NCBI GenBank assembly: GCA_903846945.1 | Contig: CAINCE010000073.1 | Location: 13,626 to 77,625 of the forward strand | Direction of reading: 5' to 3' | DNA length: 64,000 nucleotides | From: an uncultured bacterium | Lineage (GTDB): Bacteria; Patescibacteriota; Minisyncoccia; Phycocordibacterales; PALSA-1337 | Part shown: one piece after another, positions 16,479-31,698 of the stretch | Layout of the letters: each line of letters starts with the position of its first letter | Numbering within the stretch: position 1 is the first letter of the stretch | The notes under the pieces: model-generated | Told to the model about the DNA's origin: nothing | Databases searched by the model: none | The model's input: only the letters and a program-made list of their open reading frames with translations | Position numbers and translations under genes: made by a program

Positions 16479-16570
16479 TTAGATAGCATGTCGGTTTGTC
16501 GGGCTCAATGAAGAATATTCAAACGGAAATAATTTGTAGAATCGCTATAGTGTGCTAACATGACAACATT

Positions 16571-16643
16571 CGGGGCGTGGTGTAACGGCTAACATGCCTC
16601 TTTTGGGAAGAGGTGACTCCGGGTTCGAATCCCGGCGCCCCGA
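16571..16643 (+). tRNA. tRNA-Pro (anticodon TGG)
   Basis: 73-nt cloverleaf with C1:G72 pair typical of bacterial tRNA-Pro; anticodon loop TTTGGGA; T-arm CCGGG-TTCGAAT-CCCGG. Confidence 0.8.
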
Positions 16644-16708
16644 CAAGGTAGATAATGTAAAATTGAACTTCCTCCACACTCTCCTACGCCCCCTCCGTCG
16701 CCGAGGCT

Positions 16709-17230
16709 ATGGAGGGCAAGAAGGCTTCGGAGGGCAAGAAAATCAAAATGGAAAGCTATAAAAAAATAATAAATTTCTTCGATAAGTTTGAGGATAGAGT
16801 TCGCGGACAGTTGAGTCGCTTTCCGATTCTGTACACTTTTATCGGTGGTATTGCCATCGTCTTGTTCTGGAGAGGTGTTTGGCATACGGCGGATATATTA
16901 CAGGCACAAGGAGGTATTTTAGGATGGCTGTTCTACGAACCGATAAACATGTTGATCGTTCTTGTCATATTGCTCGCTACAGGATTGTTCGTTTCATATT
17001 TCATCGGTGATACGATACTCATGAGCGGACTCAAGGGAGAGAAGAAGGCGACAGAGAGGACTGAGAGGGAGATCAAGGAAGAGGAAAAACAGATCCAGGA
17101 GGAAGAGGTGCAGATCAAGCAAGAACAGAAAGAACTGAAAGAAATAAAGGCGTCGATCAGTGACATGAAAGCGGAAGTTGATGAGATCAAGGAGATCGTG
17201 GAGAATGTCGAAAATCAGCATCACAAATAG
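16709..17230 (+). CDS. membrane protein with K/E-rich coiled-coil C-terminus, hypothetical
   Basis: 173 aa; two TM helices then a highly charged EEKQIQEEEVQIKQEQKELKEIK repeat region. Confidence 0.45.
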   Translation: MEGKKASEGKKIKMESYKKIINFFDKFEDRVRGQLSRFPILYTFIGGIAIVLFWRGVWHTADILQAQGGILGWLFYEPINMLIVLVILLATGLFVSYFIGDTILMSGLKGEKKATERTEREIKEEEKQIQEEEVQIKQEQKELKEIKASISDMKAEVDEIKEIVENVENQHHK

Positions 17231-17342
17231 ATTTGGTCCCTTACTAATTCGAGGATATTTTGAAATTACAAAAGACTTCGTGGCCAGTCTTGTTACAACG
17301 CAAAATTATTGCTAGCATTGACTTTGCTCTCAAACAAAACAT

Positions 17343-17413
17343 GCGGGATTAGTTAAATGGTATAATAACAGTTTTCCAAACTGTGGTTGGGAGTTCGATT
17401 CTCCCATCCCGCA
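17343..17413 (+). tRNA. tRNA-Gly (anticodon TCC)
   Basis: 71-nt cloverleaf: acceptor GCGGGAT/ATCCCGC, anticodon stem ACAGT/ACTGT, loop TTTCCAA, T-arm GGGAG-TTCGATT-CTCCC. Confidence 0.8.
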
Positions 17414-18381: not shown

Positions 18382-18577
18382 TGTTTTTTTGTTATTAATT
18401 AATAATTCGACTAATTGTTGGTCTCGGCCCGCCGCTCTCACAGCGGAGCGAGTCATTACCATGTGCTCTATTATATAGTAAGCCATATAATAGGCAATGG
18501 GGTATAAATGTGGATGGCTATTACGACACGAAAGTAGGTGAGTGGCAAAAGAGGGGAAATAATTATATTTCACGTAT

Positions 18578-19351
18578 CTAATACGTATCTTTTATCGAAT
18601 CAAACATGAAATCAAACATCTTTTCGAACGTTTCGCGTACGGATGCGTTTTCTATGATGGTGATGATAAGTCCACTTTTGAAGTCTGTTATCGACACTTT
18701 GTCTCCGTAAATGATGATTTGTGCTGGGATATAGAAACCATCTGGTATAGTTTTGCGTGTGACGTTGCGGGCCTTGTCTTTCTTTATCAATACGTCCATA
18801 GGAACATCCTCTCTCTTTGGGCCGATGAGTTTTACTTTGATGCCAATTTTCGCTTGTTTTTCGATGTGGGCGCGTAATATCGATGCGGTATCGATATCTT
18901 TGTGATCAAGTAAAGATCTTATCAGTTTTATATCTTTACCTTCGGCTAATATGTCATTATACATTTCCTTTAGTCCATCTGACCCTTCCAGGAATTGAAT
19001 GTTCGGTTTACCAGAAAGCAGGTTAAATTTGGAAGATAGTAAGCCAAATGAATCGTTAAATACAATGTTTGCTTGATCACTTGTTTGCTTTTCTTCTTCT
19101 AGGATGATCTTGATCCTGTTTGGGTGAACAGGGAAGAACATAGATATCTTTCCAACATCATCTCGCTTGGTAATGATACCCTTTTCGACCAGTTGAGCTA
19201 GAACTTTGTAGCAAAGTGCCCGGCCCAGGTTCGTTTTTGTCGAAATAACTCTGGCATTGCATAGTCCATTTTCAAGCAGAAATAAATATATCTTTGACTG
19301 CTCTCTAGTCAGTCCTATGTCGACAAGTGTTTTTTCATCATAGTTTGTCAT
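18578..19351 (-). CDS. TrmB-like HTH transcriptional regulator
   Basis: 257 aa; N-terminal wHTH (LTREQSKIYLFLLENGLCNARVISTKTNLGRALCYKVLAQLVEKGIITK); paralog of 28074..28853 in inverted orientation. Confidence 0.6.
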   Translation of the reverse strand: MTNYDEKTLVDIGLTREQSKIYLFLLENGLCNARVISTKTNLGRALCYKVLAQLVEKGIITKRDDVGKISMFFPVHPNRIKIILEEEKQTSDQANIVFNDSFGLLSSKFNLLSGKPNIQFLEGSDGLKEMYNDILAEGKDIKLIRSLLDHKDIDTASILRAHIEKQAKIGIKVKLIGPKREDVPMDVLIKKDKARNVTRKTIPDGFYIPAQIIIYGDKVSITDFKSGLIITIIENASVRETFEKMFDFMFDSIKDTY

Positions 19352-19442
19352 GAGTGTGTAACAGATTAGCTAATGATAATGCTCATATTTCAGTACTGTA
19401 TCACAATATAAGGAATATTGCACGCATTTAGGTCAATGAGGG

Positions 19443-19471
19443 TTGACAAATTCTGTCATCGTGCTATAAAT
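19443..19471 (+). promoter_or_regulatory. sigma70-like promoter candidate
   Basis: TTGACA (19443..19448), 16-nt spacer, TATAAAT (19465..19471), upstream of 19582..19965. Confidence 0.45.
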
Positions 19472-19581
19472 ATGCACAGAAACGGTGGATATGGGATGAG
19501 TATTTACTCGCCGCTATCGTTTGACAATTTAGGGGCATTATATAGGTGGCCCATCAAACTACCAGTTCGGAAAGAAAAGTT

Positions 19582-19965
19582 ATGAAGAAATTCGTTTTTA
19601 TTATGCAGCATACTCCCACTGCTGAACAGGTTACAAGGGCTAGTGAGTCCGGCCAGGTGGTTGAACTCTCGGACAAGAAGTTGCTGTTGGTGCCAGATGA
19701 CCTGTATCTCGATTACGCGTGGTTCGTAAGTCGGGCTGCAGATATTGTTGCGGCGGTCGGCGGCATCTGCCCCGGGGATACGGTACAGGTCATGGGCCAG
19801 CAGCAGTTGGCGATGGTCGTAAACGCCCATGCGCGGAGTTGTGGTGCGGAGCTGGTGGAGTCGGTGACTCCACGGACTTCGAAGGAGGTCCACCAGCCGG
19901 ACGGCACGGTAAAGAAGGAGACGGTATTCTCCTTTGCTGGATTTCGGAAACTCCACAACTACTAG
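19582..19965 (+). CDS. small hypothetical protein P1, paralog of 26786..27172
   Basis: MKKFVFIMQHTPTAEQ...LLLVPDD...GAELVESVTPRTSKEVHQPDGTVKKE; about 60% identical to the minus-strand paralog at the far end of the island; GC-rich. Confidence 0.5.
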   Translation: MKKFVFIMQHTPTAEQVTRASESGQVVELSDKKLLLVPDDLYLDYAWFVSRAADIVAAVGGICPGDTVQVMGQQQLAMVVNAHARSCGAELVESVTPRTSKEVHQPDGTVKKETVFSFAGFRKLHNY

Positions 19966-20005
19966 TTTGTGGACAGGTTGAAAGACCTGAAAAAACTTTC
20001 CTCCA

Positions 20006-20020
20006 CGCATTGAGTCAATG
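20006..20020 (+). terminator. hairpin GCATTGA-GT-CAATGC immediately upstream of HHR1
   Basis: Perfect 6-7 bp palindrome 3 nt before the ribozyme. Confidence 0.4.
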
Positions 20021-20022
20021 CG

Positions 20023-20075
20023 TTGCTTCTCGGAATGTGTATTCCGACTGATGAGTCTGAAAGGACGAAAAGCAA
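20023..20075 (+). ncRNA. hammerhead ribozyme, type III (HHR1)
   Basis: TTGCTTC / stem I TCGGAAT-GTGT-ATTCCGA / CTGATGAG / stem II GTCT-GAAA-GGAC / GAAA / AAGCAA; stem III 6 bp; predicted cleavage after UUC at 20029. Confidence 0.8.
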
Positions 20076-20153
20076 AATTCAGGACTTTAATATATTGGTT
20101 ACATACAATATTCTTCATAGTAACTTGGCGATATCATTTGTCGACAGCTTACT

Positions 20154-20342
20154 ATGAAGAAAGTCGTAGACTCCATCAGTGCAGCAGCTGCTGAAAAAGC
20201 AGCTGAGGCGACGAAGGAAGTACTCAGTGGGTTCAAGCCTGCTGAGAGGCTTCTCCTAGTCGGTCTCGCACTGATCGGACTCGCCATCATTTCTGCAGAT
20301 GGCGAGAAAGAAAAGCAGAAGGGTTCTAGGAAATCCCACTAA
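20154..20342 (+). CDS. small membrane protein, hypothetical
   Basis: 62 aa; one TM helix (LLLVGLALIGLAIISA); directly downstream of HHR1. Confidence 0.4.
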   Translation: MKKVVDSISAAAAEKAAEATKEVLSGFKPAERLLLVGLALIGLAIISADGEKEKQKGSRKSH

Positions 20343-20346
20343 ACAC

Positions 20347-20368
20347 GCTCGTATTCCTAGATACGAGC
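20347..20368 (+). terminator. hairpin GCTCGTAT-TCCTAG-ATACGAGC immediately upstream of HHR2
   Basis: 8-bp perfect stem starting 5 nt after the stop of 20154..20342. Confidence 0.45.
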
Positions 20369-20370
20369 AA

Positions 20371-20418
20371 CTGTCTCGGAATATCGTTCCGACTGATGAG
20401 TCTGAAAAGACGAAACAG
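20371..20418 (+). ncRNA. hammerhead ribozyme, type III (HHR2)
   Basis: CTGTC / stem I TCGGAA-TATCG-TTCCGA / CTGATGAG / stem II GTCT-GAAA-AGAC / GAAA / ACAG; stem III ACAG:CUGU; cleavage after GUC at 20375. Confidence 0.8.
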
Positions 20419-20478
20419 AGTAGTTCTTCACATATTGTATTCATGTAGCTTGCGTCTATATCCTTGGTCGCAGACTAC

Positions 20479-20850
20479 ATGAATACAAACAACAAAGAGG
20501 TAGCCGCAAACTCTATAAAAGCGGTAGAGGCGTACAGGGCACAGATCGCCAATCTGCAGAGTCAAATCTGCAAATTGGAAGAGGCGGCCGCGGTCGCCAT
20601 GGAGACACTCGTCGGGGCGAAGGTTGCCGACGGCTGGAAGAAGTTTGAATACTATTCCAGCTACTACGGGTCGCATAGTGAGCTCGGTGAGGGTGATGAG
20701 GAGAGGACGCTCCTCTTTCACCCCAGTGTGGACTTGTCCACATGGGACGGTGTGTCGTTCTCGCATGGCCATCGTGGCCAGAGCGAGGAAAACGGGCGGT
20801 TCTGTAAGTGGCTCTCCGGTCTCCCGGAAGGTCACTACATCGAACTGTAG
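20479..20850 (+). CDS. hypothetical protein
   Basis: 124 aa from MNTNNKEV; coiled-coil N-terminus; follows HHR2; GC-rich. Confidence 0.4.
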   Translation: MNTNNKEVAANSIKAVEAYRAQIANLQSQICKLEEAAAVAMETLVGAKVADGWKKFEYYSSYYGSHSELGEGDEERTLLFHPSVDLSTWDGVSFSHGHRGQSEENGRFCKWLSGLPEGHYIEL

Positions 20851-20851
20851 T

Positions 20852-20956
20852 GATTTACCTGCTGTAACAGGTTGATTTAACCGGACGAGTCTTTACAGAG
20901 ATTCCTCCACTTCATTGAGCCGTATGAGTGAAAGATTCTCGTCGGTTCATAGAGTT
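20852..20956 (+). ncRNA. conserved structured RNA element, copy A (unclassified)
   Basis: About 105 nt near-identical to 22629..22733: hairpin ACCTG-CTGTAA-CAGGT; hairpin GACGAGTCTT-TACA-GAGATTC..; palindrome CTCAATTGAG; hairpin ATGAG-TGAAAGATT-CTCGT. Covarying base pairs between the two copies. Confidence 0.55.
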
Positions 20957-20978
20957 CGTTAAATGGGAGAAAAAAATT

Positions 20979-21140
20979 ATGGGTATGAACCTAGGTGGTG
21001 TGAAGGTGAAAGGCGGTTCTGGTGGGAAGCGGGGACACTCCGGGATGTGTCATTGGATGCCGACCGAGCAGGTAAAGGTAGTATCCAAGAAGGCCCGCCG
21101 CCGTGAAGATAAGTGCCTGGTTAAGCCTTCGGCCGAGTGA
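20979..21140 (+). CDS. small basic hypothetical protein
   Basis: 53 aa MGMNLGGVKVKGGSGGKRGHSGMCHW...; GGGAG 12 nt upstream. The track's 20928 GTG start lies inside the conserved RNA element. Confidence 0.3.
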   Translation: MGMNLGGVKVKGGSGGKRGHSGMCHWMPTEQVKVVSKKARRREDKCLVKPSAE

Positions 21141-21315
21141 TCGGCTTAGTAACACCTCTAACCAAGGTTGCCACAAAATTCCTCCTTCGCTCTAATGAGC
21201 TATGGAGGGACAAGCCGGTGGTGTAAATCAAGGTAAAGAGTTTTGTCCCCGTCTTTCTCAGAAAAGACGGAGAGCCTAGAGGAAGCAGAGCCTCACCGAG
21301 ATATATCTCTCGGTT

Positions 21316-21388
21316 CTGTCTCGGAATATCGTTCCGACTGATGAGTCCCTCTACATCCTATTCGGGGTGAGAGTGAAGGACGAAACAG
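21316..21388 (+). ncRNA. hammerhead ribozyme, type III with extended stem II (HHR3)
   Basis: CTGTC / TCGGAATATCGTTCCGA / CTGATGAG / extended stem II GTCC-CTCT-A-CATCC-TATTC-GGGTG-AGAG-TGAA-GGAC / GAAA / ACAG. Upstream hairpin CCGAGAT-ATAT-CTCTCGG at 21295..21312. Confidence 0.75.
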
Positions 21389-21410
21389 AGTTGGTCTTTA
21401 AAATCAAATT

Positions 21411-21674
21411 ATGCCAATGTTAAAAACCAATGTGGTGCCGTACAACAAGACGGCGAGCTGCAACCGGCAGCCAGTAAATGTCAACCATCAGCAGAAAATC
21501 GTGGTAGTCAATACACGGTGCGGTGATGGTCAGGAAGGGAAACACCAGACCCATCTGGACGCCATGGTCAAAGTCGAGGCCGAAAAGGGATTCAAAATCC
21601 TTCAGGCATCGACGGTGATCGTGCCAGTGAGTGCTGGGCTGCTCTTCTCTACGACGGTGGTGTTGGTGTCGTGA
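21411..21674 (+). CDS. hypothetical protein
   Basis: 87 aa; follows HHR3 after a conserved acagagttggtctttaaaat spacer. Confidence 0.35.
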   Translation: MPMLKTNVVPYNKTASCNRQPVNVNHQQKIVVVNTRCGDGQEGKHQTHLDAMVKVEAEKGFKILQASTVIVPVSAGLLFSTTVVLVS

Positions 21675-21765
21675 GCGGTGCAGGGTAGACAAGGCTGATG
21701 GTTCCTAGTAATCATTCTCGACCACGGAGTGCAGTGGTAGACGTGATCGCCCTACGGTAGTGGGT

Positions 21766-21796
21766 GCGTAATTCCGAGGGGAAGCTCCTCGGCGCC
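21766..21796 (+). repeat. motif GCGTAATTCCGAGGGGAAGCTCCTCGGCGC (hairpin)
   Basis: Near-identical copy on the minus strand at about 25266..25296; both sit between a gene end and a hairpin+HHR. Confidence 0.5.
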
Positions 21797-21814
21797 TGGT
21801 GAGCGGAAACTACT

Positions 21815-21834
21815 GGAAAGATGCAAATCTTTCC
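21815..21834 (+). terminator. hairpin GGAAAGAT-GCAA-ATCTTTCC immediately upstream of HHR4
   Basis: 8-bp perfect stem 2 nt before the ribozyme. Confidence 0.45.
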
Positions 21835-21836
21835 TT

Positions 21837-21909
21837 CTGTCGCGAAGTTGAACTTCGCCTGATGAGTCCCTCTACATCCTTTTCGGGATGAGAGTGAAGG
21901 ACGAAACAG
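21837..21909 (+). ncRNA. hammerhead ribozyme, type III with extended stem II (HHR4)
   Basis: CTGTC / stem I GCGAAGT-TGA-ACTTCGC / CTGATGAG / same extended stem II as HHR3 / GAAA / ACAG; followed by the same acagagttggtctttaaaat spacer. Confidence 0.8.
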
Positions 21910-21926
21910 AGTTGGTCTTTAAAATT

Positions 21927-22622
21927 ATGAAGCACGTAAATATGACCCCGCGGCAGTGGGGATTCAGTATTGAACCGTTTCCGGCCTTCCGGTCGGAGAT
22001 AGTCTATGGTCGGCACAAGCACGACCAACAGTTTCTCCCTGTTAAGGGAATATCTCCCGTTACCACATTTACTGTGGAAGGCGGAGGAGTCGTTCTCTAC
22101 AAGGGAACGGACTGTGTTCTGGCGCAAAAAACAGTCGCAGACTTTGATGATGTTCAGCGGAAAAAAGTCCCGTTCACATTGTCGCATGCGATATTCACGG
22201 TATCACCGCAGACTCTGCCGGAGAATCGCTTCCAGGTCATCAAGACCAAGGAGAAGGGAACCATCATGGTTGTACCTGGCGAGGACCTGACCAGACGATG
22301 CCTACTGTTCGCAGAGTGCAAGGGTGGGTTTCGTGGCGGCGTTGCACTCATCGGTGGGAGCAATTCAGCTGACGTCATCAAGAAGTGTCATGCCGGAGAT
22401 GCTTGCGATAGCTTGATGGCTGTTATCGCAATACTAGAGGTGGATCAGTCTATCGCATTTCATTCCTGGGGCAGGAGGAAGGACGAAGTCTACCGCCATG
22501 CTTGGGATGGTGAGACCATCAAGGTCGAGCATTATTCCATAGACGAATGGAACGTCAGGAGTGAGCTCATCACTGCCGATGTGGCACAGGCTCATGAAGC
22601 TCTTCCGGGCGACGGAAGTTGA
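21927..22622 (+). CDS. hypothetical protein
   Basis: 231 aa from MKHVNMTPRQWG; follows HHR4; no motif recognised. Confidence 0.45.
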   Translation: MKHVNMTPRQWGFSIEPFPAFRSEIVYGRHKHDQQFLPVKGISPVTTFTVEGGGVVLYKGTDCVLAQKTVADFDDVQRKKVPFTLSHAIFTVSPQTLPENRFQVIKTKEKGTIMVVPGEDLTRRCLLFAECKGGFRGGVALIGGSNSADVIKKCHAGDACDSLMAVIAILEVDQSIAFHSWGRRKDEVYRHAWDGETIKVEHYSIDEWNVRSELITADVAQAHEALPGDGS

Positions 22623-22628
22623 TAGTGG

Positions 22629-22733
22629 TATTTACCTGCTGTAACAGGTTGATTTTAACCAGACGAGTTTTTACAGAAACTCGTCTACTCAATTGAGCTG
22701 TACGAGTGAAAGATTCTCGTCGGTTCATAGAGT
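22629..22733 (+). ncRNA. conserved structured RNA element, copy B (unclassified)
   Basis: See copy A; hairpin here is GACGAGTTTT-TACA-GAAACTCGTC (the C:G pair in A is U:A in B) and ACGAG-TGAAAGATT-CTCGT (U:G in A becomes C:G in B). Confidence 0.55.
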
Positions 22734-22762
22734 GTTCGGTGAAATTTTGCAAAAAAGAAAAT

Positions 22763-23026
22763 ATGTTGAAAATTCCAGTGAATGGTGCGGAGATTCAAGA
22801 GGTCGATGGGGTCGAGTACCTTGTTGCGCGACTGGACAAGACACTGGTGTGTTCAGACTACGTAGACGAGTTGAGGAAGGGTCGTCCCGTAGTTGTGCCT
22901 AGCTCCAAGCGCGGGCATTTGACGACTCAGCTCAAGGCAGGGAACATCTCCACCCGGCAGAAGTCTATGGTTGCCGGACAGTGGATAGCCTTCATACCAT
23001 GTGAAGCGAGGGAGTTCAAGTCCTGA
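22763..23026 (+). CDS. hypothetical protein
   Basis: 88 aa MLKIPVNGAEIQEVDGVEYLVARLDK...; the track's 22706 GTG start lies inside RNA element B. Confidence 0.35.
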   Translation: MLKIPVNGAEIQEVDGVEYLVARLDKTLVCSDYVDELRKGRPVVVPSSKRGHLTTQLKAGNISTRQKSMVAGQWIAFIPCEAREFKS

Positions 23027-23375
23027 TCGTAGGAAAGACTTCCAAAGGATCACTCTAACCTTCTCAAAAGAGTGTATTGTCACCGTAAGAACAATGGTGA
23101 GAGATTTCAAAACACCGTACGAAAGTGCGGTTTTTTCATAGTGAATAAGAGCGTTTTTTACATTGTCCCAAAAACGGAACCACCCCCTTTCGGGGGTTCT
23201 GTAAGCTTTATTGCCGTGAATATTACAGTGAATGCGTGCAAGTTGTGCTAGAGGTATCTTATGTGCTAACATATGCATACACAGAGACATTATCCGAACT
23301 GTCACCGGACGGTGGCTTGGTTGGGACAACCAACATAGGTAGTGTATCGGGAAATCGCCCTTCGGGGCTTTTTCT

Positions 23376-24032
23376 TTATTTAAATCGCCATTCATCCTCG
23401 ATATGTTTCCGAATGATCTTTTTGTAAATAATTCCATCTTGTTTGTTACCCTCATAACTCCTCCGTATGCTCCCAGCGATCATATCAGCCAATTGGATGA
23501 GCACGTTATCTTTTGAGTCTGAAAACTTCAAATTTGAAATCACCTTAATTCCATTTGAGTTAAGAGATTTTCGTAGGTATGATGAAAAATTCCTCCGGAA
23601 AGCCCTGTCTCCACTACCATCAAGCTTGATCTTTGCTTCTAGAATACTCATATCACTGTGTTTCAGTAACATCTTTATGGAATAACTATAAAATGAATTC
23701 TTGTCATTTTTTAACTCATCACTATGTAGGATGGTCTTGTCTATAACCAGTGTTCTAACTTTAAATGCAAACACGTTGATAGTATTCATGAAACCTAGAC
23801 GGACTTTTTTGTTTGACTTGTTAAACTTGAATTCCATCGTATCTGGAAATCCGATACTTCTCCTAAACTCTTTTATGGCCACGGCAACCTTTTCGGCTTC
23901 TAACGGATCGTCGAATATGACAGCGGCAATAACAAAAATCTTGCTCGATCCTCTTTCGAATTTGAATCCAGCATCACCGGAATCATCGATGAATACTAAA
24001 GTTTGCGAATTTTGTGTGTGTTTGCTAAGCAT
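23376..24032 (-). CDS. DUF3800 family protein
   Basis: 218 aa; LVFIDDSGDAGF at the N-terminus and LIQLADMIAGSI near the C-terminus are DUF3800 hallmarks; AT-rich gene inside a GC-rich island. Confidence 0.65.
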   Translation of the reverse strand: MLSKHTQNSQTLVFIDDSGDAGFKFERGSSKIFVIAAVIFDDPLEAEKVAVAIKEFRRSIGFPDTMEFKFNKSNKKVRLGFMNTINVFAFKVRTLVIDKTILHSDELKNDKNSFYSYSIKMLLKHSDMSILEAKIKLDGSGDRAFRRNFSSYLRKSLNSNGIKVISNLKFSDSKDNVLIQLADMIAGSIRRSYEGNKQDGIIYKKIIRKHIEDEWRFK

Positions 24033-24400
24033 ATCGTGGAACTATTATACTCTCGAAATATTGATTGGCTAGTGAGGACAAAAAATCCCCACGAGGCTAC
24101 GGATATAGACATAGGACTTAGTCGAGAAGCGGTGTTTAGAGGAGAGAGATTTTGCAATCACTCACACCGCCTCGCTACATAATCCGATATCATACCCATA
24201 GCCCCGCGGGGACTCGTGTTTAGACACTAATAATAACTCAATGAGCCTGTAAACCTCTAAATTTATAGGCTCAATAAAGTGGAGATTTTCTTGAAATCTC
24301 CAGAAAAGCACCGAGAAACCAATCTCGGAAACCATTATCGCTCCACTCTGCGATCGAGGAAAGTTTTAGAGGGTGACTTTCAACCTATTGACGTCAGCTA

Positions 24401-24940
24401 TTATACCGACGTCTTCTGGAGCCGCGCCATCGCGTGCTCCCACGCGACCGCAGCAGCGGTCGCATCGTACATGGGGTGGTGCGCCACCCCCGCGAACGGC
24501 ACCGCGATGCCGTTCTTTTTGTTATATGCGTCCACTGAGGACGCGTCCTCGCTCAGTGCGAGGAGCGCCGTGCCTAGGTCATGTAGGCACGGATAAGGGC
24601 CCTCGAAGGCCCGTTCGTCGAGATTTCTCTCGACGCAGCGGCGGAACAGCCCCGATTCCACGGGGCTACCGCAATGGGCGATCACAGTCGCCCCTACCTT
24701 TTGGGCCTGCCAAAAGGCCCAGAAGGCCTCTTCCAACTCCTCCGAAGAGGAGTGGGAGACCGGCATCCCCGCCAGAGCGGGGAGAACGTTTGCACGCACC
24801 CAGCCGTCCGACACGGCTGAGTCGGCGATCCGGCCCTCGAAGCGGGCCGTTTCCACACCGTCCACCCGGACGGTCGCGGCGATTGCGAATGACGGGCCAT
24901 ACAGCCCGTCAACTTCTGCGTCACAACTAAAGATTTTCAT
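24401..24940 (-). CDS. DEDDh-type 3'-5' exonuclease (DnaQ-like fold), putative
   Basis: 179 aa, GC-rich; IFSCDAEVDGL (Exo I D-x-E), AHCGSPVESGLF (Exo II-like), HHPMYDATAAA (Exo III H-x4-D); GAGG 13 nt upstream of ATG. Confidence 0.5.
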   Translation of the reverse strand: MKIFSCDAEVDGLYGPSFAIAATVRVDGVETARFEGRIADSAVSDGWVRANVLPALAGMPVSHSSSEELEEAFWAFWQAQKVGATVIAHCGSPVESGLFRRCVERNLDERAFEGPYPCLHDLGTALLALSEDASSVDAYNKKNGIAVPFAGVAHHPMYDATAAAVAWEHAMARLQKTSV

Positions 24941-24954
24941 AATATTCCTACCTC

Positions 24955-25135
24955 TCTATTCGTCCAACAATCTCTTTCTAATCACACATCGTGCGACTAC
25001 ATCCCTCCTCCAGGAATGCTCAACTGAGAAAAAAGACCACCGAAGTTTCGATTGGTAGAATGTATTCATTATGTTCGAGCTTATCTTCTGTAATGATAAT
25101 GAATACGTTCCACCAATCGATAGTAGTAGAAACAT
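24955..25135 (-). repeat. 181-bp conserved 5' leader, copy 1, upstream of the DEDDh exonuclease gene
   Basis: About 95% identical to 27186..27366; contains a roughly 24-bp imperfect hairpin (cgattggtggaacgtattcattat ... ataatgaatacattctaccaatcg). Confidence 0.7.
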
Positions 25136-25146
25136 ATGATATTTTT

Positions 25147-25197
25147 CTGTTTTCGTCCTTTCGGACTCATCAGTCGGGATACACATCCCGAGAACAG
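25147..25197 (-). ncRNA. hammerhead ribozyme, type III (HHR5, minus strand)
   Basis: Minus-strand read: CTGTTC / TCGGGA-TGTGTA-TCCCGA / CTGATGAG / GTCC-GAAA-GGAC / GAAA / AACAG; stem III 5 bp; cleavage after UUC. Preceded on the minus strand by hairpin GGAGAAGCTTTTGGTTAAAAGCTTCTCC (25199..25226). Confidence 0.75.
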
Positions 25198-25335
25198 TGG
25201 AGAAGCTTTTAACCAAAAGCTTCTCCATTTAACCTATGAAGTATTTTCCGCGTGCCTCATCATCACGCGCCGGGGAGCTTCCCCTCGGAATTACGCGGTA
25301 TGTTTATAGTCTTACCGATAAGACTTGAAGTGCTA

Positions 25336-25671
25336 CTACGGCAGCAATTGGTTGCCGTGTTGCTCACGGAGCTTGGCCATTCGTTTGGCCACCCTCCTCT
25401 GCATCGCCGCATACCTGTGCGGCGGTTCGGTGAATCCGGGAACTTCCCGGTTATGTGCGAGGTCGTCGCACATCTGCTCCACCATGATGGCAAGGATGAA
25501 CTCCTTGTCATCATGGGTGAATTCCTGGGACTCGCCCAGGTCCTGTGTCCAAACCAAGTATGGTCGCACTAGCGACTCATACTGGCTGCCGATACTGATT
25601 CCGGCGGCAGTACCCAAATTTTCTGATGTATTCATGCAACCTATTTCCGATCCTTCAGAAACAAATTGCAT
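25336..25671 (-). CDS. hypothetical acidic protein
   Basis: GC-rich ORF; start uncertain (the track's N-terminus MEKLLVKSFST is a translated palindromic hairpin); DKEFILAIMVEQMCDDLAHNREVPGF. Confidence 0.3.
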   Translation of the reverse strand: MQFVSEGSEIGCMNTSENLGTAAGISIGSQYESLVRPYLVWTQDLGESQEFTHDDKEFILAIMVEQMCDDLAHNREVPGFTEPPHRYAAMQRRVAKRMAKLREQHGNQLLP

Positions 25672-25812
25672 GAATACATCTAAGACTCTAAGAGCCAACC
25701 TCCTGGGAGACCGGCTCAATAAAGTGGAGAAGCTTTTAACCAAAAGCTTCTCCATTTAACCTTGCGACGATTTATCCAGTAACGGAAAGGAAGTCGCTGT
25801 TCCTTTGTTGTA

Positions 25813-26424
25813 TTAGGTCATTGCCCGTATAACGGACAGTGAGACGTCTCTGGGGGCGTCACTCTCTCCGACGGGATGCAACCCACCCCTCCAACTCTCG
25901 AGGGCTTCGGTGTACATCCCATGTTTGGTGGGATGATACACATGCGCGGGCTCGCCTCGCAAGAAAGCCCCGTTGGTCCACCAGAATAAAATTAGGGAAA
26001 TGCACTCTTTGTCTTTGTGTGCTTTCCCGTATTCTGATTTGTACCCAGAATCGATAAGGAGCTGCCAGTCAATGTCTGGTAGCTCCTCGACCAACCATTC
26101 CGGGTGGCCGTGATCTTCCCATTGGATTAACTCGTCCAATGGTAGGAAGATGTCTTTCTGAAACACTAGTTTCAGAAAGTAATTCTGTAAATTTTCCGAG
26201 CACAACCGCGTGCTCGCTTCTAGGAGTTGCCGTTGCAACTCCTTGTTCAGCCAGTAGGAGATCTTTCCGTCTCCTGACTGGATGTACCCCTTACAGGTCA
26301 GGCGGTTCGCGCCTGACCTGTAGGTCGTTTCACGAGTCCCCATGCCATCGGGGGACTCGTATTTAACTACTGTTTGCGTGCCGAACGGCTCAACGTCGGC
26401 ACGCAACATTCTCATTTGCGACAT
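25813..26424 (-). CDS. hypothetical protein
   Basis: 203 aa; AAGGAGG 9 nt upstream of ATG on the minus strand; no motif recognised. Confidence 0.5.
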   Translation of the reverse strand: MSQMRMLRADVEPFGTQTVVKYESPDGMGTRETTYRSGANRLTCKGYIQSGDGKISYWLNKELQRQLLEASTRLCSENLQNYFLKLVFQKDIFLPLDELIQWEDHGHPEWLVEELPDIDWQLLIDSGYKSEYGKAHKDKECISLILFWWTNGAFLRGEPAHVYHPTKHGMYTEALESWRGGLHPVGESDAPRDVSLSVIRAMT

Positions 26425-26785
26425 TTTAATGCCCTCCTTCTAGGGCATGTTTCCACAACTTGTTTCGCATGTGGATTGCGGTTCGAGAAGATCATTCTCT
26501 ATCAACCGTCAACATGGAAGTTGTTGGCTGAATAAAGCGGAGAAATTTACGTATTCTCCAATTGACTTTCGTCACGGCAAGCAACCACGCCTGCAACCCG
26601 ATCTAGGATTGACCTCCATCCTTGATCATTATAGGAGTATTCAGATTTGTCTTGCGACAGGTCTCATACACAAAACCTTTTTACTTTTTTTGACACGACC
26701 AGTTTGTCCCTCCGAAGCCTGTTGGGGCGAAGGAGGAATTTTGTCGCAACTATAGGCTATCCCTATAGGTTTTTACGTCCAGAGC

Positions 26786-27172
26786 TTAGTAGCTGTGGAC
26801 GAGACGGAAGCCCTTGAACGTGAAGATGAACTCCTTCTTCACGGTCCCGTCCGGCTGCGGGATGTCCTTAGACACCCGCGGTGTGACGCTCTCAACGAGC
26901 TCAGCGCCAGCCTGGCGTGCCAGCGCCTGCACAGCGCTAGCCAACTGAGCCTGACCCATAATGTGGGCCACGTCGCCGGCGGAAAATCCGCCGACCGCCA
27001 AGGCGATTTCCTCGGCGCGCTGGACAAACCAGTCACGACCTAGATTGGCGTCGTCCGGAACGATCAAGAGCTTCTTGTCGTTCACCTGGACCACTTCACG
27101 TCCGCCTTCGGACGCCGCGGTGATCTGTTCCGCCGTGGGGACGTGGGACATTATAAATGCAAAAGTTTTCAT
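26786..27172 (-). CDS. small hypothetical protein P2, paralog of 19582..19965
   Basis: 128 aa MKTFAFIMSHVPTAEQ...LLIVPDD...GAELVESVTPRVSKDIPQPDGTVKKE. Confidence 0.5.
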   Translation of the reverse strand: MKTFAFIMSHVPTAEQITAASEGGREVVQVNDKKLLIVPDDANLGRDWFVQRAEEIALAVGGFSAGDVAHIMGQAQLASAVQALARQAGAELVESVTPRVSKDIPQPDGTVKKEFIFTFKGFRLVHSY

Positions 27173-27185
27173 ATTTTTTCTACCA

Positions 27186-27366
27186 TCTATTCGTCCAATA
27201 ATCTCTTTCTAATCACACATTGTGCGACTACATCCCTCCTCCAGGAATGCTCAACTGAGAAAAGAGACTATCGAAGTTTCGATTGGTAGAATGTATTCAT
27301 TATGTTCGAGCTTATCTTCTGTAATGATAATGAATACGTTCCACCAATCGAGAGTAGTAGAAACAT
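27186..27366 (-). repeat. 181-bp conserved 5' leader, copy 2, upstream of P2
   Basis: See 24955..25135. Confidence 0.7.
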
Positions 27367-28073
27367 GCACACGCTTAGGAATCGTTTTATACGATCCCTC
27401 TTATCATGCCGATCTAGAAGTTTGTTACGCTATCGGTCAGCATGACGAAGAGGAATAACATCTAGTGGTATTGCAAAAAAGCAATATTATTCCACCAGTT
27501 TCCTATCATTCGCTATTTCATTTTCAAATTACTTCCTTGATCTTACCGTCACTCCCGATCTCTCTAAAAGATCGGCTTCTGGTTACAAGGACATTTCTGG
27601 GAGCAAATGTGGTTAGCATTCACTCACAGCAGATGTCATTGCGACACTGTGTAGATATCGGACTATAGTCATCACTACCCGTCGGGAGTGACCTTTCTCA
27701 TAGATCTGGTTCGTTTGCAGGGAACCGTCACTATGTAAGCGATATCTGGCAAACAAGATAACAAATGGCTGTTGTCCTTCTCACTCTCTCCTCTTTACCA
27801 TGCTTAGCGGGGTCAAACCCGAGGCCATGGTGCCTGCCCAACATAGGGACTAGAGGTGAAAAGCAATCATTCACTATCTTCATTACTGTAAGGAACTATC
27901 GTTTCCGAACTTCATCTCATCTGGCATAATCATAACATTTATTAACTAGAATGTCAATACACAATGACACGGAACTGTGAGATGTCAGAATAGCCCGTGA
28001 CAAAGCCAGAATAATGGCTTATCCACACATTGTACTTGTCACAAATCCGTGACGATGATATGCTATATTCATC

Positions 28074-28853
28074 ATGTATGAACAAACACTTACAAATGCG
28101 GGGCTTTCAAAAGAGCAGGCATCCGTTTATCAGCTCCTCATGCAGGGAGGATTGACTCCTGCAGGCGTTATTAGCAAAAGGGCGGCCCTAAAGCGTGGTT
28201 TGACGTATAAAGTCCTAGAACAGCTCATAAATATGGGTTTAGTTCAGAAAAGGGACGATCTAGGCAAAATAACGCTATTTCAAGCATCTCATCCTGGCGT
28301 ATTGAGGAAACTTACTGAAACCAAGGCCGAGGAGGTAAAGAACGCCCAAGTATCATTGGAATCAGTGATGGGTAAGATGGTATCAGACTATAATTTGGTG
28401 ACGGGGAAGCCAAATGTGCAGTTTTTCGAAGGTTTGGAGGGGGTAAGGAGGGTATTGGATGATTCTCTGAGTGCTACTGGTGTGATCTATTCATATGCAG
28501 ATATTGAATCAATCGAGAAATATATACATGGGGTTAACGAAAAATACGTTGAAAAGCGTGATAAGTTCAATATCAAAAAGAAAGCAATAATACTAGATAC
28601 GCCATTTGCACGTGATTTTTTGAAAGATTACCATCGAGAAACTACTGATATCAAGCTTATCAAACATGATTCACCTCCATTTCATACAGTTATGCAGGTT
28701 TACGACAACAAGGTTAGTTATATTACGCTGTCTGAAAAGGAAATGATCGGTGTTATCATAGAAGACCCGCACATCTTTGAGATGCATAAATATCTGTTCG
28801 AATATTCTTGGGATAAGGCGGAATCATTGCCGAAACTAGATACTCCTAAATAA
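28074..28853 (+). CDS. TrmB-like HTH transcriptional regulator
   Basis: 259 aa; LSKEQASVYQLLMQGGLTPAGVISKRAALKRGLTYKVLEQLINMGLVQK; paralog of 18578..19351. Confidence 0.6.
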   Translation: MYEQTLTNAGLSKEQASVYQLLMQGGLTPAGVISKRAALKRGLTYKVLEQLINMGLVQKRDDLGKITLFQASHPGVLRKLTETKAEEVKNAQVSLESVMGKMVSDYNLVTGKPNVQFFEGLEGVRRVLDDSLSATGVIYSYADIESIEKYIHGVNEKYVEKRDKFNIKKKAIILDTPFARDFLKDYHRETTDIKLIKHDSPPFHTVMQVYDNKVSYITLSEKEMIGVIIEDPHIFEMHKYLFEYSWDKAESLPKLDTPK

Positions 28854-31698
28854 TGATAGCGTGTCGGGTCTCTATCATTTGAGGGAGTTGAAAATCATTC
28901 CTGTATCGTTCCAGTTTCTCGCCCAATTTCTCTACAACCAATATAACCAGCTCTTCACTACCTGTTGTTTTCTCTCTGAACATTCTGGTTACCGCATAAC
29001 CTTCTCCAAAGGAAGCGAGGTTTAATGTATAAGACTTGTAATCTGACGCCGTGGTTGCGTATACCATCGCATCTTCTGGGTTGTCAGAAAGGCCCAGTGT
29101 CTCCCAGGAATTCATCACCATATGATCTAGTATGTATGATTCGTCCAGAGATTTTGTTACTAACTCATTGTTTATGGAGTCATTCCTCACAATATCCCAA
29201 CATGCTATCTCATCTAGGGGGTATTCGTTGTATGCGATAAATCCCTTCTCAATGTATTTTGCAGCTATCTTGGTGTTTCTGTCACATTCAGCTTTGACGA
29301 TATGCATGACAGCGTAATCATCTAGAGTTTCCTCTAGCATTTGTTCGCCAACTTTGCGACCATTAAAATCTGGATCGATATTAAATTTACCAAAATGAAC
29401 ACTTCCATCATCTTCGAATTCAAAGACACAATATCCTATCGGTTGCCCATCGAATTCGGCGACATGAAATATGGTCCTAGTATTCTTTCTCGAAACTTCT
29501 AGTCCGGCTAGCAACCTTTTCAGTAGCTTAGGTTTGTCTTGGTAGTTTTTCTTGTAAAGATTTCGGATTGCTTTCACAAATTCCGCGCTGTTGGTTTCGT
29601 TGTCTCCACCCTGGTATTGGATATTCTTGATAAATGGCATCTCGTTCATATTGGCGATATCGAATGAGCCGCGGCTAGCTTTAAGTATGGTTTGAACAAC
29701 TATTGCCTCAGGTTTGATATTTTCGATATATTCACGGATTGCTTCTGGAGTAGATACATTTTCAGATGCTATTTTACTAATGATAGTGTCGACTTGAGCT
29801 AGGATGAGTTTCTTTGCTTGAGGAATGACGGTTTTTTTGATAACAACATCATTTGGCTCCAAGATTTCTTCTTCCTCATATGTTTTAGATCTTTCATAGA
29901 TATCATCAAACTCATCATCTAGGCGTGATATATATGATGATATACTGGCCAATAACTCCAATATCTGATGAGAATCAATACCGTCAGGCAAGTTAGATAT
30001 TACATCGAGTGTCTTTGTGGCAACTACAGGATCAGTCTCATAGTAACGAAGAAATACTTTTAAGCCAGATTCACCATGAGTCTTTGCTAGATTTAGGAGT
30101 TTATCTTCGGATACCTGCTCCAATTCATTGAGTATGATGAGTAAGGCGCCTTGTTCCTTGAATGAGAAGTTGTTTAGTCGTATGTCACCTGAGAATATAT
30201 CGCTATCGGAAATATTGAAGTAGTGCTTTTTGAATTCTTCTAAATATCGTTCTCGTTGCCTCTTTTCATCTTCTGTCTCACCTGTATGTGGTCTGAAAAG
30301 AGTATTATATGTAAAATCGAGCACATCCGCCTTGATGTTTTTCTCTGTTTCAGAAAGATTTCCGACATCAAAATATTTCAATAATTCTAGATCTTGATTG
30401 AACACACCGATCTCTCCACTGGTAGATAATCTTTGAACGAAGTAGTCTGGGTTATTGAGTGCTCCTAGGTCGTACATCTTGTTCAGATACTCGACACCTT
30501 CAGTCGAAACTCCTATTCTCTTGAATTCGACTCTATATAATATAGCTGCTATAGCTGTTTTATCATTGTTATCGTTCACGTGCTCCATCAATTTCACTGA
30601 AGCATATTGTCCGTCAATAGCGCTTAGCGCGTCAGCTACTGAGTTTGCAAAGATAGGATTTAGATTCTTTGACCAGAAGTCAACTACGAGGTCGACATCG
30701 TCGTGGTCACCGCTCGTGCCGAGGTATCTATATTGGTCCAATACCGCCAGCATTATTCTATGGAAAGGGTATTCTTCTATATGCTCGAAACTGATATAAT
30801 CCTGCGTATCATTCATTTCATATTCAAAGACTGATTGAGCTGAATTGTATGCAGCACTTGGTTGATATGTTTTAAAGAGCATCGAGTGTGCTGCATTGAA
30901 GTAATCTGACTTTGATAATCTCCTTTTAGAGTTATCTTCTGATACGCTTTCTCTGGTGAAGCTTGAATTATTGGCTTCGAGAAAGACCAGTGACTCTTGC
31001 AAGTATGCGAGACATAGACTGAGTAACTTTTTCCGAGATTGAGTATCTAGTGTTCTGTATTCATCATTATCGAACAAGTCGCGTGTTTGCAGAATTTCGC
31101 TTAAGCCTACAGGATTCGAACTTGCCTTATCAATGGCATTCGATATATTATTTGACGCCATACCAAATGAAGCGATTTCATCAAGAAGGTTTGTGCCATT
31201 GGATAGTAAATGTTTTGGGGCTTCGATTCTTCTCTTGTTTATCTTTTGCCACGGATTGAGGGTAGTTTGATTTGATGAGTCTTTTGTGGATAAAAAAACT
31301 CTATGTGCGGCCATACTCCAAACTGAAAATTCCTCGGTAGTTTGCGGACCTATATTGCTGGAAATCAATACCCGAAAGGCTTCTAAGTCGTCAGGATATG
31401 TGTCAAAGTACAGATCCGCATCACTAGGACTTACAGAAATGTTGCGAGATGACAGACCAAAAAAAGCCATTCTTTTTCCCGGTGACATAGAGCCCAGGTT
31501 GTCGAGGTTATCGGGAGAGAAAAATGTCAGTGGATTGTTCCCATATTCTTTTTTCCATTCTGCATAAGTGGCAACGTTGTTATTCTCTCGTTCGAACTCA
31601 TCTATAGGATCGCATAATGACTCTTGGGAAAACTGAGTGGCATTGTTATTTGTAGTATTCTGTTCTTCGGTCACTGGTATTGATTCAAATTTCATCAT
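28846..31698 (-). CDS. large hypothetical protein with GNAT-like C-terminal region
   Basis: About 950 aa; C-terminal GYCVFEFEDDGSVHFGKFNIDPDFNGRKVGEQMLEETLDDYAVMHIV resembles an acetyltransferase fold (low confidence); start taken at the MMKFES tandem Met. Confidence 0.45.
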   Translation of the reverse strand: MMKFESIPVTEEQNTTNNNATQFSQESLCDPIDEFERENNNVATYAEWKKEYGNNPLTFFSPDNLDNLGSMSPGKRMAFFGLSSRNISVSPSDADLYFDTYPDDLEAFRVLISSNIGPQTTEEFSVWSMAAHRVFLSTKDSSNQTTLNPWQKINKRRIEAPKHLLSNGTNLLDEIASFGMASNNISNAIDKASSNPVGLSEILQTRDLFDNDEYRTLDTQSRKKLLSLCLAYLQESLVFLEANNSSFTRESVSEDNSKRRLSKSDYFNAAHSMLFKTYQPSAAYNSAQSVFEYEMNDTQDYISFEHIEEYPFHRIMLAVLDQYRYLGTSGDHDDVDLVVDFWSKNLNPIFANSVADALSAIDGQYASVKLMEHVNDNNDKTAIAAILYRVEFKRIGVSTEGVEYLNKMYDLGALNNPDYFVQRLSTSGEIGVFNQDLELLKYFDVGNLSETEKNIKADVLDFTYNTLFRPHTGETEDEKRQRERYLEEFKKHYFNISDSDIFSGDIRLNNFSFKEQGALLIILNELEQVSEDKLLNLAKTHGESGLKVFLRYYETDPVVATKTLDVISNLPDGIDSHQILELLASISSYISRLDDEFDDIYERSKTYEEEEILEPNDVVIKKTVIPQAKKLILAQVDTIISKIASENVSTPEAIREYIENIKPEAIVVQTILKASRGSFDIANMNEMPFIKNIQYQGGDNETNSAEFVKAIRNLYKKNYQDKPKLLKRLLAGLEVSRKNTRTIFHVAEFDGQPIGYCVFEFEDDGSVHFGKFNIDPDFNGRKVGEQMLEETLDDYAVMHIVKAECDRNTKIAAKYIEKGFIAYNEYPLDEIACWDIVRNDSINNELVTKSLDESYILDHMVMNSWETLGLSDNPEDAMVYATTASDYKSYTLNLASFGEGYAVTRMFREKTTGSEELVILVVEKLGEKLERYRNDFQLPQMIETRHAIII

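Follow-up and report, generated by a model that had tools for sequence, protein, structure and literature searches.

The 64,000-nucleotide stretch analysed here, hereafter the window, comprises positions 13,626 to 77,625 of contig CAINCE010000073.1 (GenBank assembly GCA_903846945.1) from an uncultured bacterium of the candidate phyla radiation (CPR; Patescibacteria). Within it, the interval at positions 19352-28073 holds two sets of small genes that converge on a central gene and are separated by structured RNAs, among them hammerhead ribozymes. We consider this interval to be, quite probably, an accessory chromosomal island built from two modules of the same type and of different lineages; each module would consist, on the likeliest reading, of a gene for a TrmB-like regulator situated divergently from a polycistronic operon led by a gene of the Csx20/MJ1673 family. 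The guanine plus cytosine (GC) content of the interval is 48.2%, compared with 42.9% for the remainder of the window, and no other 8.7-kb stretch of the window exceeds 44.6%. An earlier note, written from the sequence itself, had described 55-60% GC over most of the interval; the rise is real, but that figure does not hold. Most cassette genes lie at 51-64%, the DUF3800 gene at 36.5%, and the leader region 27173-27960 at 41%. The GC skew is positive until about position 23000 and negative thereafter, which fits two convergent transcription units.

The plus-strand arm begins with the P1 gene (19582-19965, plus strand), whose product matched the PADLOC model of Csx20 over residues 1-124 (E 3e-7) and belongs to a family carrying PF27247. 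The minus-strand arm begins with the P2 gene (26786-27172, minus strand), to which PF27247 ("MJ1673") was assigned in precomputed tables together with 45 homologs. The two proteins are 63% identical, which bears out the inverted pair of paralogs previously described at these positions. The structural model of P2, with a predicted local distance difference test (pLDDT) score of 94.9, retrieved ring nucleases as its best matches in a Foldseek search of the PDB, namely Sso2081 (E 6e-4) and Sis0455, and a search of PDB sequences with the Csx20-like profile gave no match. Judged from sequence and model, the Csx20/MJ1673 family probably has the CARF-like fold of cyclic tetra-adenylate ring nucleases, and nuclease activity is predicted for the members found here. 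Csx20 degrades cyclic tetra-adenylate, and the reported fold is nearest to that of Crn1 (Sso2081) (PMC12409355).

Each lead gene faces away from a gene encoding a TrmB-like winged-helix regulator. TrmB1 (18578-19351, minus strand) and TrmB2 (28074-28853, plus strand) both matched PF01978 (E 3.8e-10 and 3.7e-8, respectively) and are 33% identical, so they are inverted paralogs as proposed. The earlier note had further taken them for the borders of a foreign element. At least 13 CPR loci, however, as a rule together with hammerheads, have a TrmB-like gene divergent from a Csx20-like gene, which makes the regulator gene a component of a conserved unit and not a border. The nearest relatives of TrmB1 adjoin P1-type Csx20-like genes in the related loci L030 and L037, while relatives of TrmB2 with 50-54% identity are divergent from Csx20-like genes in L005, L008, L019, L024, and L026. 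Regulators and lead genes form two co-varying lineages, TrmB1/P1 grouping with L030/L037 and TrmB2/P2 with L005/L019/L024; the arrangement once read as a nested inverted architecture is therefore a pair of module lineages set tail to tail, not a recent inverted duplication.

Following the P1 gene, the plus arm is composed of hammerhead HH1, an open reading frame (ORF) of 62 amino acids (aa), HH2, a 123-aa ORF, a two-hairpin element, a 53-aa ORF, a conserved element termed motif B, HH3, an 87-aa ORF, HH4, a 231-aa ORF, another two-hairpin element, a second 87-aa ORF, and terminator-like hairpins. The minus arm starts with a structured leader and the P2 gene, followed by motif B, a two-hairpin element, a 203-aa ORF, a further two-hairpin element, a 99-aa ORF, a P1-type hairpin fused to HH5, a copy of the leader, an exonuclease gene, one more two-hairpin element, and the DUF3800 gene. 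Nearly all intercistronic gaps of both arms are occupied by a hammerhead or by the conserved two-hairpin element, and both operons converge on the DUF3800 gene and the DUF3800-IX RNA. With RNA modules in the gaps, and with the link between hammerheads and the P1/P2 gene family recurring in many related loci, the proposal that structured RNA and predicted self-cleavage organise the locus is supported.

A Rfam search reported by E-value returned five matches to Hammerhead_3 (RF00008) in the window, with 37.0-42.0 bits and E-values of 1e-6 to 3.5e-5. Four of them are on the plus strand: HH1 (20022-20076; 40.2 bits, E 4.4e-6; intact core and three stems), HH2 (20368-20421; 41.2 bits, E 2.3e-6), HH3 (21313-21391; 42.0 bits, E 1.4e-6), whose stem II bears a 27-nt extension, and HH4 (21834-21912; 37.0 bits, E 3.5e-5). 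The fifth, HH5 (25145-25199, minus strand; 37.6 bits), is directly preceded by a P1-type hairpin at 25196-25235 (repeat D6, 40 nt), the two forming a composite feature at 25145-25235. An independent descriptor scan of all 64 kb that demanded the core, three stems, and an NUH triplet retrieved the same five and no others, all of them inside the island. The five hammerheads recognised earlier are accordingly of type III and have intact cores, though their scores are below the gathering score; at the gathering threshold, Rfam yielded no ribozyme in the whole window, only the DUF3800-IX RNA and four tRNAs.

Comparative evidence supports the assignment. The core CUGANGA ... GAAA and the NUH triplet are present in all five window copies and in 26 distinct relatives, with GUC, UUC, CUC, GUA, GUU, UUU, and CUU as cleavage triplets. 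Among the 26 distinct sequences, which lie beside Csx20-like genes, the core is invariant and helix III is the open one; every examined position of stems I, II, and III except one varies among two to four standard pair types, and a single non-standard pair occurs. One relative (L021, 2590-2644) reaches 51.7 bits, above the Rfam gathering score. Hammerheads adjoin the Csx20-like gene in most related loci, with four copies within 2.8 kb in L034 and three in L021. A hairpin abuts the 5' side of the hammerhead in 19 of 30 cases, so that the upstream cleavage product would end in a hairpin. Other ribozyme classes were found neither in the window nor in 13 related loci, save for one weak twister-like match in L005. 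This twister-P1-like match (12951-13073, plus strand) scores 32.4 bits against a gathering score of 67.2, retains most of the conserved core bases, and carries two insertions, one of 34 nt; it shares the Taylorbacteria contig L005 with one hammerhead and five of the two-hairpin elements. Two further observations concern the surroundings of the hammerheads. A 37-nt element, GCGUAAUUCCGAGGGGAAGCUCCUCGGCGCCUGGUGA, occurs at 21766-21802 (plus strand) and 25260-25296 (minus strand) with 92% identity, the copies being inverted and hence alike in sense relative to their arms; HH4 and the hairpin that precedes HH5 are situated 30-70 nt downstream of it, and the sister genome L054 has the element as well. 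A possible pseudoknot, CAUAGG...GGAGC...CCUAUG GUUAAAAA GCUCC, precedes the hammerhead in L016, L018, and L021.

The second intercistronic element is an RNA of two consecutive hairpins (P1-P2). The two copies of a 105-nt structured RNA pointed out earlier correspond to a repeat of about 105 nt at 20853-20955 and 22630-22733; they are real and belong to a larger two-hairpin motif, of which the window holds five copies, three beyond the original pair. Copies 1 (20870-20960; 61.6 bits with model R1, fold z-score -3.4, covariation; core of the first 105-nt RNA) and 2 (22648-22738; 63.3 bits, z-score -4.6; the second 105-nt RNA) are on the plus strand, and copies 3 (24231-24314; 65.3 bits), 4 (25680-25766; 65.6 bits, z-score -5.0), and 5 (26491-26572; 60.5 bits; a variant with the compensatory pair CAGCC/GGUUG) on the minus strand. 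Hairpin P1 is variable, often GGAGAA...UUCUCC. Hairpin P2 follows directly and is long, with a conserved base, 5'-CUUUAU-U-GAGCC ... GGYUC-AUAGAG-3', and a variable tip. When 25 sequences were aligned, 88.8% of the cells were paired, versus 41-48% with the partners slid; both sides had changed in 17 of 22 pairs, and none of 500 shuffles equalled the observed values. One U-G wobble is kept in 22 of the 25 sequences and a bulged U throughout, which argues for an RNA of the sense strand. The covariance model gave 53 matches in 574 kb of loci, all linked to Csx20-like genes and all on the arm-sense strand, and zero matches in 35 unrelated viral loci. Rfam contained no match for the motif in the window or the related loci. 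A strict regular expression had caught the window copies only; the wider set came from nhmmer and a looser descriptor. Exact-pattern scans of IMG/VR with two P2-hairpin-core patterns and the leader core had brought up 35 loci, which were discarded as chance matches, none of them fitting the P1-P2 model.

Locus by locus, two-hairpin elements and hammerheads trade off against each other, loci rich in the former having few of the latter and vice versa. About six two-hairpin elements and no hammerhead are found in L024, while L034, with its four hammerheads, has no two-hairpin element. A P1 hairpin that precedes HH5 in the window precedes hairpin P2 in the sister genome L054, and from this shared hairpin the hammerhead and the two-hairpin element look functionally interchangeable. 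Hairpin P1 together with CUUUAUU also scores as terminator-like in a terminator scan. A promoter reading of the conserved TTGAGC in hairpin P2 was ruled out for want of a -10 element at the proper spacing. The sequence GGUUA(A) recurs just 5' of hairpin P1 and within its loop (UGGUUAA), with upstream examples at 25236-25250 of the window (minus strand), L018 7228-7263, and L021 4198-4233.

The third conserved RNA is a structured 5' leader. The duplicated 181-bp leader of the earlier note proved genuine: a 181-nt repeat at 24955-25135 and 27186-27366, 97% identical, is part of a leader of about 200-230 nt with a conserved, covarying structure, copy 1 of which (repeat D1) lies at 24941-25140 and copy 2, found by repeat search, at 27173-27400, both on the minus strand. 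In about ten loci it precedes Csx20-like genes, and in L017, L018, and the window it also stands before other genes. The fold comprises a long hairpin and a multi-stem domain; 94.5% of the cells are paired, versus 40-47% when slid, and 17 pairs are changed on both sides. The leader is most likely non-coding, since the 37-codon frame of copy 1 is interrupted in copy 2. With only 10 codons left there, an upstream ORF was rejected.

Motif B (GUUGCSACAAAAUUCCUCCUUCGC...GGAGGGACAA...) is non-coding, conserved, and about 80-130 nt long; it is located at 21167-21295 on the plus strand with a second copy at 26673-26750 on the minus strand (inverted repeat I1, 78 nt, 78%). Copies about 80% identical are found after the Csx20-like genes of L004 (10422-10544), L005 (5006-5076), and L054; several loci have the motif behind the Csx20-like gene, and the plus arm has it behind the 53-aa ORF. 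Compensatory changes are visible by eye (GCCAC/GUGGU versus GCGAC/GUCGU), and Rfam gave no match. The several palindromic hairpins described for the island were likewise recovered by the repeat search. Long hairpins at 20435-20488 (plus strand), 25625-25680 (minus strand), 25048-25120, and 27279-27351 share the arm sequence GUAUUCAU...AUGAAUAC. Two of these contain, in the 3' arm, the AUG with which the following ORF starts; the encoded proteins share the N-terminus MNT..., and sequestration of the start codon is suggested.

Where the two operons converge, we identified a DUF3800-IX RNA (23284-23352; RF02968, 43.1 bits against a gathering score of 36.8) followed by a terminator hairpin and T run read from the sequence (23357-23375), the whole feature spanning 23284-23375 on the plus strand. 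This RNA had been missed before; the end of the DUF3800 gene is 24 nt away, and the terminator hairpin is common to both. The gene itself (23376-24032, minus strand), of an RNase H-like fold family, was confirmed by matches to PF12686 (E 2.5e-18) and PADLOC PDC-M04A (E 1e-14). A promoter-like site at 24044-24071 (10 of 12 positions) is probably its own promoter. DUF3800 is an RNase H-like domain that serves as the effector of type VII retrons and also occurs next to Cas12a2. The pair resembles the DUF3800-I to -XI RNAs (Weinberg et al. 2017, PMC5737381) in that the RNA lies beside a DUF3800 gene in the opposite orientation and is followed by a terminator; unlike the other DUF3800 RNAs, it sits at the convergence of two ribozyme-punctuated operons. 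The GC content of the gene, 36.5%, differs from the rest of the island and suggests a separate origin.

The gene at 24401-24940 (minus strand) encodes a protein with the fold of a DEDDh 3'-5' exonuclease. The AlphaFold model (pLDDT 94.4) matched RNase T, the exonuclease domains of PolC and Pol III epsilon, TREX1, RNase AS, and ExoX in Foldseek (E 6e-5 to 1e-3; template modelling (TM) score about 0.65), and D7, E9, E95, H154, and D159, corresponding to Exo motifs I-III and H-x4-D, are invariant in 35 sequences. Searches of Pfam, PHROG, PADLOC, and PDB sequences gave no match, so that the exonuclease named in the earlier note is supported by fold and invariant residues, not by a sequence family.

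The remaining cargo consists of small ORFs, those of 62, 123, 53, 87 (twice), 99, and 203 aa being taken from the ORF list. The 62-aa ORF (20154-20342, plus strand, as are the next five) is also a gene call in L001 and has no family match. The 123-aa ORF (g123; 20479-20850) has its start codon in the 3' arm of the hairpin at 20435-20488 (inverted repeat I18) and differs from L054 by 15 synonymous and 24 non-synonymous changes; it is fast-evolving or of uncertain coding. The 53-aa ORF (20979-21140) corresponds to a 53-aa gene call in related contigs, and the first 87-aa ORF (21411-21674) shows a third-position bias, with differences to L054 of 5/4/14 by codon position. The 231-aa ORF (g231; 21927-22622) has 12 synonymous and 3 non-synonymous changes relative to L054 and no family or phage match, and the slot of the second 87-aa ORF (22763-23026), the last of the arm, is taken by another gene in the sister genome. 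On the minus strand, the 99-aa ORF (g99; 25336-25635), of uncertain coding, starts within the hairpin at 25625-25680 (inverted repeat I11) and shows no third-position bias against L054, and the 203-aa ORF (25813-26424), a gene call in L001 and L054, has 12 synonymous versus 18 non-synonymous changes. Compared with L054, the frames at 20479-20850, 25336-25635, and 25813-26424 thus have non-synonymous changes equal to or exceeding synonymous ones, or no third-position bias, and are maybe fast-evolving.

Homologs of P2 form 46 clusters, 59-82% identical, in CPR metagenome bins (Taylorbacteria, Saccharibacteria) and unbinned contigs. The sister genome L054, whose flanks are about 92-93% identical to ours, carries an island at the same site with other content, in the order RNase Y, GNAT-965, TrmB, island, TrmB, and HU. 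It is without positions 24286-25195 of the window (HH5, leader, exonuclease gene, and P1 hairpin), a 910-bp cassette that has the 8-nt sequence TCTCCACT on both sides, at the junction of hairpin P1 and the next element. The last gene of the plus arm differs as well, the alignment ending at 22733 and resuming at 23023, and the island of L054 contains an extra 2.4 kb with a GNAT-domain gene of 478 aa (13110-14546, plus strand). The P1 slot is occupied there by a 115-aa gene (18554-18901, minus strand) with weak full-length matches to STIV_B116-like/Crn2 (E 0.013) and Csx16 (E 0.02), a replacement that may be a swap between ring-nuclease families. The P2 gene is 75% identical between the two genomes, although its neighbours and flanks are 92-98% identical. 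For L026 and L007, HU directly adjoins RNase Y, the site being empty and the module several kb off, while L006 has a small version of the island at the same site. Deviant composition, the empty site in L026 and L007, and the whole-cassette differences from L054 bear out the view that the region is accessory and unlike its flanks; in the comparison with relatives proposed as a check, it is not syntenic with the same content in all of them, and is absent or altered in some.

Whole-cassette differences between window and sister genome, with TCTCCACT flanking the 910-bp cassette, also raise the question of whether the P1-P2 element acts in DNA, as a recombination site folded in the single strand like attC, in an integron-like array of shuffled cassettes whose RNA structure would be incidental. 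The conserved base, bulged base, and variable tip of hairpin P2 loosely resemble attC. The bases of the hairpin (CUUUAUUGAGCC / GGYUCAUAGAG), however, do not fit the R''/R' boxes of attC (RYYYAAC / GTTRRRY), the conserved G-U wobbles (U-G in 22 of 25 sequences at one pair) suit RNA, and no tyrosine recombinase or intI gene was found in the island or the neighbour annotations. On one side of the cassette there is a hammerhead and not a hairpin P2, and an 8-nt direct repeat suffices for ordinary microhomology-mediated deletion. With no recombinase, no attC boxes, and wobble-dependent pairing, we regard a DNA-level role as very unlikely.

The same variability bears on the claim that the region is a foreign phage- or plasmid-like element or the relic of a retro-element. 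A degraded integrated phage, plasmid, or other mobile element, with the ring-nuclease-like genes as anti-CRISPR cargo, would agree with the GC deviation, the differing position among genomes with an empty site in L026 and L007, the four tRNA genes 2-5 kb upstream, and the fast turnover of P2-gene alleles. Furthermore, phage csx20 homologs are suspected anti-CRISPR or counter-defence genes (PMC13551039), and the earliest description of hammerhead arrays was from prophages and included ones near the anti-restriction gene ardA, which they surround (PMC3088659). Against this origin, neither the island genes nor the precomputed neighbour annotations include an integrase, recombinase, replication, structural, or reverse-transcriptase gene, terminal repeats around the island are missing, and housekeeping neighbours are present in every long contig. 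The Csx20-like family has no relative in IMG/VR, and a collection of 50,697 phage records held no match for P2 or the 231-aa protein and a single weak one (32%) for the exonuclease; a plasmid collection was not searched. Regarding a retro-element or retrozyme, there was no match to a reverse-transcriptase domain, and the hammerheads separate protein-coding cassettes. A foreign element therefore finds no backing in gene content or viral databases; as CPR mobile elements are poorly sampled, an origin from a prophage or plasmid keeps some weight, and we rate it as unlikely.

About equally improbable is ordinary host regulation. The bacterium would then have a signalling system of its own, encoded at another place, which the Csx20-like proteins would serve as housekeeping ring nucleases or in some other CARF-like capacity, and the ribozymes would do no more than tune expression. 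Most characterised Csx20 genes are indeed cellular and located in type III CRISPR loci (PMC12409355), and the chromosomal location of the module, its dedicated regulator, and its conservation among CPR lineages agree with this. Variable cargo, deviant GC content, shifting position, and allele replacement are, on the other hand, unusual for housekeeping genes, and no CRISPR array lies within the 64 kb. The latter result comes from an analysis that included no search for cas genes; the precomputed Pfam tables, which extend 10 kb to either side of the P2 gene and cover the island and its immediate flanks, list none.

The reading we prefer is that of an accessory island in which RNA elements separate the transcripts of individual cassettes. 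The hammerheads most likely cut long transcripts during synthesis into single-gene mRNAs. Cleavage would leave the upstream fragment with a stable hairpin, a few further bases, and a terminal 2',3'-cyclic phosphate, and the downstream fragment with an initial 5'-OH located in the folded ribozyme. Cassettes that differ in origin could thereby have their expression and stability set separately. The P1-P2 element probably has an equivalent function, achieved differently, for instance as an endonuclease site or partial terminator, self-cleavage being a further possible mechanism. Between the early genes of phage T7, RNase III sites form conserved intercistronic hairpins which, once cut, leave stabilising 3' hairpins. 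These sites may offer a plausible model for the P1-P2 element, the base of whose hairpin P2 is far more conserved in sequence than typical sites. As to the leader of about 200 nt, a role as a cis-regulatory RNA acting on the next gene downstream is probable. Ring-nuclease-like genes, a DEDDh exonuclease, DUF3800 with its RNA, and small fast-evolving ORFs point to defence or counter-defence based on nucleic acids or nucleotide signals as the putative theme of the cargo. An extended version, in which the P1-P2 element would be a new class of self-cleaving ribozyme or a dedicated RNA-processing site replacing hammerheads, and the leader a ligand- or protein-sensing RNA controlling ring-nuclease expression, the whole forming with TrmB a CPR-specific defence or counter-defence system, appears distinctly doubtful to us, slightly more so than the two alternatives of mobile origin and host regulation.

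Several points weigh against the preferred reading. All five hammerheads of the window score below the Rfam gathering score of 48.5, and conserved unpaired bases are scarce in the P1-P2 element. The 99-aa and 123-aa frames are without a clear coding signature and may be non-coding, and seven ORFs of the island had no match in Pfam, PHROGs, or PADLOC, leaving most of the cargo without an assigned function. The fold match of P2 to Crn1 (Sso2081) is modest (TM about 0.47), the lack of a CRISPR array in the window speaks in the same direction, and control of the operons by the TrmB-like proteins is suggested by gene order.

The transcript-processing step rests on precedent. Multiple hammerheads flank single genes or short gene blocks in clusters within prophage regions (Perreault et al. 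2011, PMC3088659); such arrays cleave in vitro, and that of Agrobacterium tumefaciens also in vivo in E. coli (PMC3088659). The arrays described by Perreault and colleagues share with the island several equally oriented type III hammerheads that separate neighbouring small genes along a long transcription unit, the proposed conversion of a polycistronic RNA into gene-length mRNAs, and cargo of a counter-defence type (ardA there, ring-nuclease-like genes here). They differ in that our locus has a CPR host and no integrase or phage gene was found in it, and in that its hammerheads are tied to a TrmB-like/Csx20-like module and alternate with a second, non-hammerhead element. The statement that ribozyme-punctuated cassettes are not a described system is therefore untenable, as hammerhead-flanked gene arrays were published in 2011 (PMC3088659) and the clustering of ribozymes near genes is known (PMC6765202). 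It was the clustering of bacterial ribozymes near one another and near certain genes that led to twister, pistol, hatchet, and twister-sister (PMC6765202). As in those neighbourhoods, structured RNAs of different kinds take each other's place beside the same genes, and L005 combines a hammerhead, the twister-like match, and P1-P2 elements. The P1-P2 element matches none of those classes in Rfam, and self-cleavage is only a candidate activity here.

Anti-CRISPR operons of the acr-aca type provide another comparison, as they carry a linked gene for a DNA-binding regulator and include csx20-aca14 (PMC13551039). As in csx20-aca14, a Csx20-family gene heads the small operon of each module, and a gene for a DNA-binding regulator is linked to it. 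Unlike acr-aca operons, the regulator is a TrmB-like winged-helix protein encoded divergently and not inside the operon, the setting is chromosomal in CPR bacteria, and an anti-CRISPR role is putative. Literature searches returned nothing that ties hammerheads to CPR bacteria or to bacterial polycistronic operons, and the papers listed for hammerheads and anti-CRISPR concerned synthetic-biology, review, or unrelated uses, with no natural association among them. Hammerhead-punctuated operons, ribozyme-associated gene neighbourhoods, and DUF3800 RNAs are already described, and the CPR setting, the module of TrmB, Csx20-like gene, and hammerheads, the P1-P2 element, and the leader appear to be new according to the searchable literature and Rfam.

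The purpose of bacterial hammerheads and other small self-cleaving ribozymes has yet to be settled (PMC6765202). The locus family offers a compact, recurrent, and comparable setting in which to study it, with a regulator, a lead gene of a biochemically characterised family of cyclic tetra-adenylate ring nucleases, and cassettes separated by ribozymes, and it links ribozyme punctuation with defence or counter-defence cargo in CPR bacteria, where both are little known. It also provides two RNA motifs that have good support and are absent from Rfam, of which one is positionally interchangeable with hammerheads, the type of clue behind twister, pistol, and hatchet; the P1-P2 element is thus a concrete candidate for a cleavage assay.

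Other features are found at the ends of the operons and beyond them. The plus arm is preceded by a promoter-like site at 19443-19471 (plus strand; TTGACA, spacer of 16-17 nt, TATAAA), which is inferred from direct reading and was missed by the promoter scan because the second hexamer ends in A, and is closed by terminator-like hairpins at 23114-23200 (plus strand), comprising a scan match at 23114-23131 followed by a T run and a second GC hairpin at about 23170-23200 read from the sequence. The promoter-like site of the minus arm, at 27929-27957 (minus strand; TTGACA, 17 nt, TATGAT), was the best of the scan, matching at 11 of 12 positions. It is separated from the leader by about 470 nt (27461-27929, minus strand) without a convincing ORF, the only frame being one of 50 aa; conservation of this segment was compared in the sister genome only. 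Adjoining TrmB2, the gene at 28846-31743 (minus strand) encodes a 965-aa protein with a C-terminal GNAT domain and lies within the segment that L026 and L007 lack between HU and RNase Y. Four tRNA genes identified with Rfam are clustered within 3.2 kb (14220-17413, plus strand) just upstream of HU and the island, and the same tRNA-HU neighbourhood is found in L006, L007, and L026.

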